A DNA stretch of 64,000 nucleotides from NCBI GenBank assembly GCA_017460085.1, contig JAFUBQ010000021.1, positions 9,228 through 73,227 on the forward strand, given 5' to 3'. Shown here piece after piece: positions 39,463 through 39,697 of this stretch. Below the pieces are notes generated by a model. The model had not been told where the DNA came from. It saw only the letters and a list, made by a program, of their open reading frames with translations, and ran no database searches. The stretch comes from Alphaproteobacteria bacterium (GTDB taxonomy: Bacteria > Pseudomonadota > Alphaproteobacteria > RF32 > CAG-239). Both the position numbers and the translations under genes were made by a program. The number at the start of each line of letters is the position of its first letter. Position 1 is the first letter of the stretch.

Positions 39463-39571
39463 TGTCAGTTCCTTTTGTTATGATCACTTCTTCACTTATC
39501 CACACATTTTGACACTTTTTTCAAAAAATGAAAACATGCCTGTAACCCTTATGGATACTGCGTTTTTGGGC

Positions 39572-39603
39572 ATTATACTACCCCCCCCGGCACTAAAAGT
39601 CAA
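39572..39603 (-). promoter_or_regulatory. Consensus sigma70-like promoter for tpsA with a G8 homopolymer (C8 on + strand, 39581-39588) in the spacer; candidate phase-variable switch
   Basis: Minus strand reads TTGACT (39603-39598), a 20-nt spacer TTTAGTGCC-GGGGGGGG-TAG, then TATAAT (39577-39572), about 110 nt upstream of the tpsA ATG. Confidence 0.55.
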
Positions 39604-39697
39604 GCTTTATCTTTGCATTTTATCCAGATTTTTTCATTGAAAAAGATACTGTCATAATGTAATGTCTGCTATATAGTTTTGAACTTTTTAGGTTTAT

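Follow-up and report, generated by a model that had tools for sequence, protein, structure and literature searches.

A candidate mutable poly-G repeat in the core promoter spacer of a giant two-partner-secretion exoprotein gene from an uncultured rumen alphaproteobacterium

In Neisseria meningitidis, the spacer that separates the -35 from the -10 box contains a homopolymer in the promoters of porA (poly-G), opc, and fetA (both poly-C) (PMC4235727; PMC13293289; PMC5953494). The repeat number sets the length of the spacer, leading to high, intermediate, or low transcription of the surface or secreted protein (PMC4235727; PMC13293289). Tracts of 6G-8G have been classed as "mutable" (1e-7 to 1e-5 per division) and those of >7G as "hypermutable" (PMC4235727), and in meningococcal fetA the 6C alleles are treated as non-phase-variable and the >=9C alleles as phase-variable (PMC13293289). 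In Haemophilus influenzae, the fimbrial hifA and hifB genes share a combined divergent promoter that contains TA repeats (van Ham et al. 1993, cited in PMC4235727). Repeats are also found at genes for large two-partner-secretion (TPS) exoproteins, namely the 7-bp repeats upstream of hmw1A in the HMW1/HMW2 systems of H. influenzae (PMC12721329) and the intragenic G10 tract in fhaB, the gene for FHA of Bordetella pertussis (PMC7446907).

Here, we analyzed a G8 homopolymer located between a divergent tpsA/tpsB gene pair. We refer to the whole 64-kb stretch of DNA that was analyzed as the window, and all positions are those of the window. The features of the locus are as follows.

22738-39462, minus strand: tpsA, encoding a 5574-aa LktA-family (FxxPxG) TPS exoprotein (open reading frame and NCBIfam match)
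39463-39568, minus strand: predicted tpsA 5' leader, about 105 nt (start placed from the position of the -10 box)
39572-39577, minus strand: TATAAT, a perfect hexamer that overlaps TAGTAT; 20-nt spacer (window sequence and orthologue comparison)
39575-39580, minus strand: -10 hexamer TAGTAT, 17 nt from the -35 box; the homologous box and the one probably in use (promoter scan and orthologue register)
39581-39588, minus strand: G8 tract, read as C8 on the plus strand, which occupies the spacer's 3' half (window sequence and orthologous tracts)
39598-39603, minus strand: -35 hexamer TTGACT of the tpsA promoter (window sequence and orthologue comparison)
39604-39630, minus strand: A-rich stretch 5' of the -35 box, UP-element-like (orthologue alignments)
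39637-39665, plus strand: tpsB core promoter TTGAAA-17-TAATGT, with hexamers at 39637-39642 and 39660-39665 (conservation across loci)
39698-41455, plus strand: tpsB, encoding a 585-aa ShlB/FhaC-type Omp85 transporter (domain matches)

The N-terminal TPS domain of the tpsA product matched the NCBIfam model NF012204 (adhes_FxxPxG; E 2.7e-42, 144 bits against a cut-off of 60, aa 53-206), and the protein also matched the LktA 53-aa tandem repeat model (LktA_tand_53). A Pfam search of the giant protein returned no TPS match. The tpsB product matched ShlB (8.1e-23), POTRA_2 (1.5e-18), and Omp85 (2.4e-16). Both features that mark two-partner secretion (type Vb), an N-terminal TPS domain and an adjacent ShlB/POTRA Omp85 transporter, were found. 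Based on these matches, the names tpsA and tpsB are right, and the system belongs to a leukotoxin-like subfamily. TpsB-dependent secretion of TpsA is predicted from the genes. The locus is similar to LktA/LktB of Fusobacterium necrophorum, the type member of the FxxPxG group, in its LktA-family domain, its match to the 53-aa repeat model, the giant size of the protein, and the ShlB-type partner. The leukotoxin genes of F. necrophorum form the lktBAC operon, whereas the gene order here is divergent. We are not aware of any report of a poly-G tract in an lkt promoter of F. necrophorum.

The tps locus is chromosomal. One flank contains genes for the Der GTPase, transketolase, a GGDEF protein, and dihydroorotate dehydrogenase, and the other contains an IS110 transposase and a prophage. 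Three small ORFs (65, 79, and 139 aa) lie just 3' of tpsB, followed by the IS110-family transposase (41312-42445, minus strand, and 42571-43578, plus strand). The three ORFs had no Pfam match, and the same set trails tpsB in the lineage with a G6 tract (L030). A 1359-aa ORF located amid the housekeeping genes (10982-15061, minus strand) matched no family in a Pfam search. In a set of species-representative genomes, the TpsB relatives were all found in metagenome-assembled genomes (MAGs) from the rumen, with roe deer, yak, sheep, and cattle as hosts. These MAGs are labeled as Alphaproteobacteria, Rhodospirillaceae, or (Proteo)bacteria, and the protein matches concur.

On the minus strand, the region upstream of tpsA reads gcTTGACTtttagtgccGGGGGGGGtagTATAATgccc, which comprises TTGACT (39603-39598), a 20-nt spacer (39597-39578), and TATAAT (39577-39572). 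The initial annotation had described these hexamers and the tract and had placed them between the divergent gene starts, and this description holds; the gap spans 235 nt from the tpsA ATG at 39462 (minus strand) to the tpsB ATG at 39698 (plus strand). Absent from that annotation are the TAGTAT hexamer, the second tract (G9 at 59793-59801), and the separate promoter of tpsB. TTGACT matches the consensus at five of six positions. A promoter scan independently picked up TAGTAT at exactly 17 nt from TTGACT, and this hexamer keeps the key positions T-12, A-11, and T-7. The TATAAT box starts 3 nt downstream of the overlapping TAGTAT and would reach 17-nt spacing only with G5. The A-rich stretch upstream of the -35 box is partly conserved in the orthologues (…AAAAAAAT(A/G)CTTGAC in the alignments) and may serve as an UP element. 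No pattern of an alternative sigma factor or ECF motif was found in these sequences. An RNA regulator in the tpsA leader is also unsupported: an Rfam search of 39300-39800 gave no match, with no recognized RNA element in the leader, and the fold of the predicted 109-nt leader was not significant (z = -0.86). Short motifs in the leader (39463-39568, minus strand), TGTGGATAA and AAGGGTT, are conserved among the closest lineages.

To establish the register of the promoter, we compared 16 related loci from rumen alphaproteobacterial MAGs, five with the tract and 11 without it. The divergent tpsA/tpsB arrangement was kept in all 16. Among the 11 tract-free loci (TpsB identity <=85%), 10 had TTGnnn-16/17-TAnnnT at the equivalent position, and the TTGnnn -35 box itself was found there in all 11 of these more distant loci. 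The five tract-bearing loci (TpsB identity 87-92%) had TTGAC-Gn-TAnnnT at the same place, and TTGAC was invariant. Their tracts and hexamers are as follows.

Window: G8, TTGACT-17-TAGTAT, or TTGACT-20-TATAAT
L007: G7, TTGACT-17-TAGAAT
L018: G6, TTGACT-15-TAAAAT
L005: G9, TTGACA-18-TATATT
L006: G10, TTGACA-19-TATATT

TAGTAT (39580-39575) stands in the same register as TAGAAT of L007 and the TAnnnT boxes of the tract-free loci. The TATAAT of the window arose by two substitutions relative to L007 (TAGAATGATG vs TAGTATAATG), with the length unchanged. TAGTAT at 17 nt is thus the window's homologous -10 box. The initial annotation had considered the spacer 3 nt too long, a claim that this comparison does not support, as the spacing to the homologous box is already optimal. 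Because TAGTAT pairs with the -35 box at the optimal 17 nt, the tpsA promoter is most likely ON at G8, and in its present state tpsA is probably transcribed. A repeat between the -35 and -10 boxes of a functional promoter is what the consensus hexamers and their positional conservation across the 16 loci point to. This comparative evidence indicates that the G-run lies in the spacer of a real tpsA core promoter, and RNA polymerase would presumably use these hexamers.

We expanded the search to metagenomes with the pattern TTGACTTTTN{5,8}GGGGGN{4,14}ATGCCC. All 40 loci recovered came from unrelated organisms or matched by chance, and no orthologue was gained. One match of similar appearance (L060) was set aside since its promoter drives an unrelated outer-membrane-protein gene. 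Five contigs from JGI metagenomes (L049, L057, L061, L064, and L071), from an unrelated organism, show G-runs of 5 or 7 and an A insertion in a family of near-identical sequences, TTGACTTTTCTCGTG(A)Gn(A)AGATGAGCCGTATGCCC. The TTGACTTTTCTCGTG/AGATGAGCCGTATGCCC family is another promoter-like context with differences in G-run length, in metagenomes unrelated to the window. The MAG RGIG5026 (L012, L018, and L019) contains at least three tpsB loci with 72-89% identity to the query, and the G-tract promoter was found only at L018, so that paralogous TPS systems with and without the tract coexist in this genome.

The tpsB gene has its own promoter. The arrangement TTGAAA/TTGATT-16/17-TAnnnT was found in nearly all 16 loci, with the -35 box conserved at -61 to -69 from the tpsB ATG, and the tract is located about 50 nt upstream of this -35 box, outside the tpsB promoter. 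The suggestion that the tract could tune both genes is therefore not upheld: because the tpsB promoter is independent, only tpsA would be affected. With few exceptions among the loci, and with none in the five of the tract-bearing clade, the tpsB spacer measures 16-17 nt, whereas the tpsA spacer in that clade ranges from 15 to 19 nt. The fixed tpsB spacing serves as an internal control and rules out a combined promoter of the hif type. As hifA/hifB is described in the citing source, the likeness lies in a divergent gene pair with a repeat in a -35/-10 spacer. By that same description, the hif promoters overlap and both genes switch together, whereas the promoters here are back-to-back and separate, and the tract lies in the tpsA spacer only; a single repeat lying in both divergent spacers was not found. 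An alternative tpsB promoter from the promoter scan, TGGATA-16-TATACT (39552-39579, plus strand), would transcribe through the C8 in the direction of tpsB. In nearly all lineages, the conserved TTGAAA-17-TAnnnT is nearer to the gene, and for this reason we did not take TGGATA-16-TATACT as the main tpsB promoter.

The tract is confined to one clade, in which the homopolymer is kept and each of the five lineages has a different length (G6, G7, G8, G9, and G10). The repeat number thus differs between related lineages (TpsB identity 87-92%) while the tract is retained. The remainder of the spacer (AATTC / TTTAGTGCC / TTTATCCGGC / TTTGTCTGA) and the intergenic DNA around it have diverged, with a mean column identity of 61%. 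Spacer lengths are 15, 17, 17, 18, and 19 nt in the tract-bearing clade and 16-17 nt in the tract-free lineages. The window and L007 both have exactly 17 nt, and the G8/G7 difference between them is due to substitution (GCC-G8 vs GGC-G7) and not to slippage. That both keep 17 nt despite unequal tracts suggests selection for fixed spacing. The closest pair with unequal tracts in this clade, L005 and L006, is only 92.9% identical.

Within lineages, no change in tract length was found in 21 near-clonal contigs and the window, which cover four lineages and about nine haplotypes. The tract was G8 in five of five contigs and the window (L001-L004 and L076), G10 in eight of eight, G7 in five of five, and G6 in three of three, so that contigs encoding the same TpsB always agreed in length; the NCBI records of L025 and L035 are those of L006 and L007. 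The contigs differ by 0-8 SNPs per 2-6 kb, and the haplotypes by 1-8 SNPs. The tpsA site thus has a constant repeat number among near-clonal genomes. Because the assemblies report only the majority length and the samples come largely from one ruminant study, minority variants are neither shown nor excluded. The proposal of a phase-variable adhesin is accordingly upheld in part: the repeat in the promoter spacer and the differences in length between lineages stand, and variation among near-clonal contigs does not. On present data, length changes are visible between lineages and not within them, and "mutable" contingency-type repeat is the name that fits the tract best. We filed it as a candidate mutable promoter repeat and not as a demonstrated phase-variable locus because the near-clonal contigs lacked polymorphism.

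The likeness to porA and opc proposed at the outset is borne out for the architecture, a G/C homopolymer in the -35/-10 spacer as in porA, opc, and fetA, and fails for length polymorphism among near-clonal genomes. Unlike the neisserial tracts, which usually have 9-14 units and differ between closely related isolates, the G8 here is fixed within lineages. G8 lies at the boundary of the "mutable" 6G-8G and "hypermutable" >7G classes (PMC4235727). Unlike the phase-variable alleles of fetA, the G6-G8 tracts fall in a grey zone near the 6C non-phase-variable class (PMC13293289). The host also differs, being an uncultured rumen alphaproteobacterium in which the tract is known from sequence. Compared with HMW1/HMW2 and FHA, the common feature would be a large TPS exoprotein varied by a simple repeat. 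However, the HMW heptamer is found in the 5' UTR as well as between two promoters, with effects that are partly post-transcriptional, and the fhaB tract, being intragenic, acts through frameshifts. In neither case does a homopolymer occupy a core promoter spacer, and the TpsA here belongs to the LktA/FxxPxG subfamily. The initial annotation had regarded such a tract as not described for a giant TpsA; phase-variable TpsA proteins as such have precedents in fhaB (PMC7446907) and hmw1A (PMC12721329).

We then determined whether the tract could be a chance feature, since its improbability in an AT-rich genome had been part of the original argument. The window has a GC content of 39.9% and is only moderately AT-rich, and about 0.3-0.43 runs of G8+/C8+ are expected from composition per 64 kb, so a single run of eight is not in itself very improbable. 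The conclusion that the tract is not a chance feature nevertheless stands, supported by the run census, shuffles, and orthologues. G/C runs of 5 occur eight times in the window and runs of 6 or 7 not at all; beyond these there is a single run of 8 and a single run of 9. Both long runs sit 6-7 nt after cTTGACTTTT, a pattern found in 0 of 100 shuffles. In the 64 kb of the window and 120.7 kb from the same bacterial group (~185 kb), all G/C runs >=7 fall in these promoter spacers. A homopolymer arising by chance, or a sequencing or assembly artefact without biological meaning, would draw on the composition-based expectation given above (about 0.3-0.4 runs >=8), but the same tract is present in five other independent assemblies and orthologous tracts are present in four other lineages. 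With the census and the shuffles, these replicate assemblies and orthologues effectively refute that reading, and we consider it hardly credible.

The second long run is located in a prophage. A Lambda/P2-like prophage occupies about 49838-64000 and continues beyond the window (in L105), with genes for terminase GpA, portal, S49 protease, capsid E, tube, and tape measure. A PhdYeFM/ParE toxin-antitoxin pair adjoins the tape-measure gene (about 53864-54464). Two features are relevant here.

59768-59807, plus strand: sister promoter AAAAAATACTTGACTtttgtctatcG9TAAATA, with G9 at 59793-59801 (sequence; G9/G10 polymorphic)
59838-60377, plus strand: 179-aa ORF, reverse-oriented in the head-tail module of the prophage, a moron (prophage annotation and related phages)

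The 179-aa ORF opposes the flow of the module (tape measure, tube, DUF6441, head closure, capsid E, S49 protease, portal, and terminase). In related phages, identified through the DUF6441 neighbour, the two flanking genes abut, with neither the ORF nor the promoter between them, which identifies the ORF and its promoter as an inserted moron cassette. Scans of a viral collection with the exact prophage promoter and a free tract length, and with the 179-aa ORF, gave no match. The sister tract is G9 in the window and in L105, which are identical over 14,163 nt, and G10 in L077/L106 from another sample, with 0 mismatches over 3540 nt. Repeat number therefore differs between near-clonal sequences at this tract, although this is a single case on a short 4.9-kb contig and the G9/G10 difference could be an assembly error. 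Within the moron promoter, 19 nt at 59768-59786 (AAAAAAATACTTGACTTTT) are identical to the tpsA promoter of L007 (region 2088-2106 of L007), and the moron promoter has 13 nt and Gn-TAAA in common with the tpsA promoter of L018. This identity hints at a common promoter family or at promoter capture. The best -10 candidate of the sister promoter is TAAATA at 19-20 nt, which is poor, so the promoter may be weak or OFF.

Taken together, we give about an even chance to the explanation that the tract is a slippage-prone repeat in the tpsA spacer that tunes tpsA only, with the spacing now optimal and the switching rate possibly low. G8 would be a repeat within the spacer of a genuine sigma-70-type tpsA promoter, and the gain or loss of G residues by replication slippage would alter the distance between the two boxes and thereby change promoter strength. 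Since the two -10 boxes are 3 nt apart, lengths of about G4 to G9 would each yield a pairing at 16-18 nt. The tract would thus act as a dial rather than an ON/OFF switch, with graded tuning and activity lost only from G10 upward. That expression responds to tract length, how reversibly, and at what rate are what we infer from this arrangement. The lengths between lineages, the polymorphism at the sister tract, and the non-chance position in the spacer fit a slippage-prone repeat of the porA/opc/fetA type. We regard the promoter-spacer repeat as real, and it plausibly tunes tpsA by slippage.

A real possibility, though one we do not expect to hold, is that the G-run is fixed in a constitutive or regulated promoter and has no role in switching, with the different lengths arising from slow evolution by indels and substitutions. 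It could be, for example, a spacer feature beside the -10 box or a site for a regulator of a small promoter family. The invariance of the tract in all near-clonal assemblies and the identical 17-nt spacer of the window and L007 despite unequal G-runs are consistent with a fixed element, as is the recurrence of cTTGACTTTT…Gn…TA at a second, unrelated gene, where the 19 nt identical to L007 could be a shared recognition site. However, such an element would not be expected to show spacing of 15-19 nt in the tract-bearing clade when the spacing is constant in the tract-free relatives and in the tpsB promoter, nor a difference of one G between otherwise identical contigs at the sister tract. There is also no known regulator, and we know of no positive role for a G-rich spacer in sigma-70 promoters, which counts against a fixed element. 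The earlier version of the slippage reading, in which TTGACT-20-TATAAT is the working promoter, is OFF or weak now, switches ON and OFF at high frequency, and tunes tpsB too, is very improbable. It has in its favor the perfect TATAAT, the five-of-six match of TTGACT, and an architecture that is formally like that of porA, opc, and fetA (PMC4235727; PMC13293289). Against it, the register from 15 other loci (16-17 nt in 10 of 11 tract-free loci) corresponds to TAGTAT here, TATAAT would need three successive G losses to reach 17 nt, the tpsB promoter is separate with constant spacing, and the 21 near-clonal contigs and the window show no within-lineage variation. A bolder proposal, which we consider rather unlikely, is that a clade of uncultured rumen Alphaproteobacteria has, in a portable "poly-G promoter cassette" made up of an A-tract, cTTGACTTTT, 6-7 nt, G6-10, and TA…, a true contingency switch that drives both the giant LktA-type exoprotein and the prophage moron, the moron promoter being captured from, or sharing ancestry with, the tpsA promoter.

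Returning to the preferred reading, a slippage-prone repeat that would tune tpsA only, what is new here is the combination of the host, an uncultured rumen alphaproteobacterium, with a TpsA of the LktA/FxxPxG type and a repeat in the core promoter spacer. The spacer register should be checked against orthologues before a promoter is called ON or OFF; in this case, the check changed the prediction from OFF to ON and removed tpsB from the switch. If the portable cassette exists, no repeat-based phase-variable gene set would have been described before it in a rumen commensal that is not a pathogen. If the tract switches, a 5574-aa surface or secreted protein that is very costly to make would be under stochastic control in an uncultured lineage of rumen commensals, and such tracts would offer a simple sequence signature by which to find contingency genes in metagenome-assembled genomes. 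Such control would then exist beyond the classic host-adapted pathogens, such as Neisseria, Haemophilus, Campylobacter, and Bordetella.
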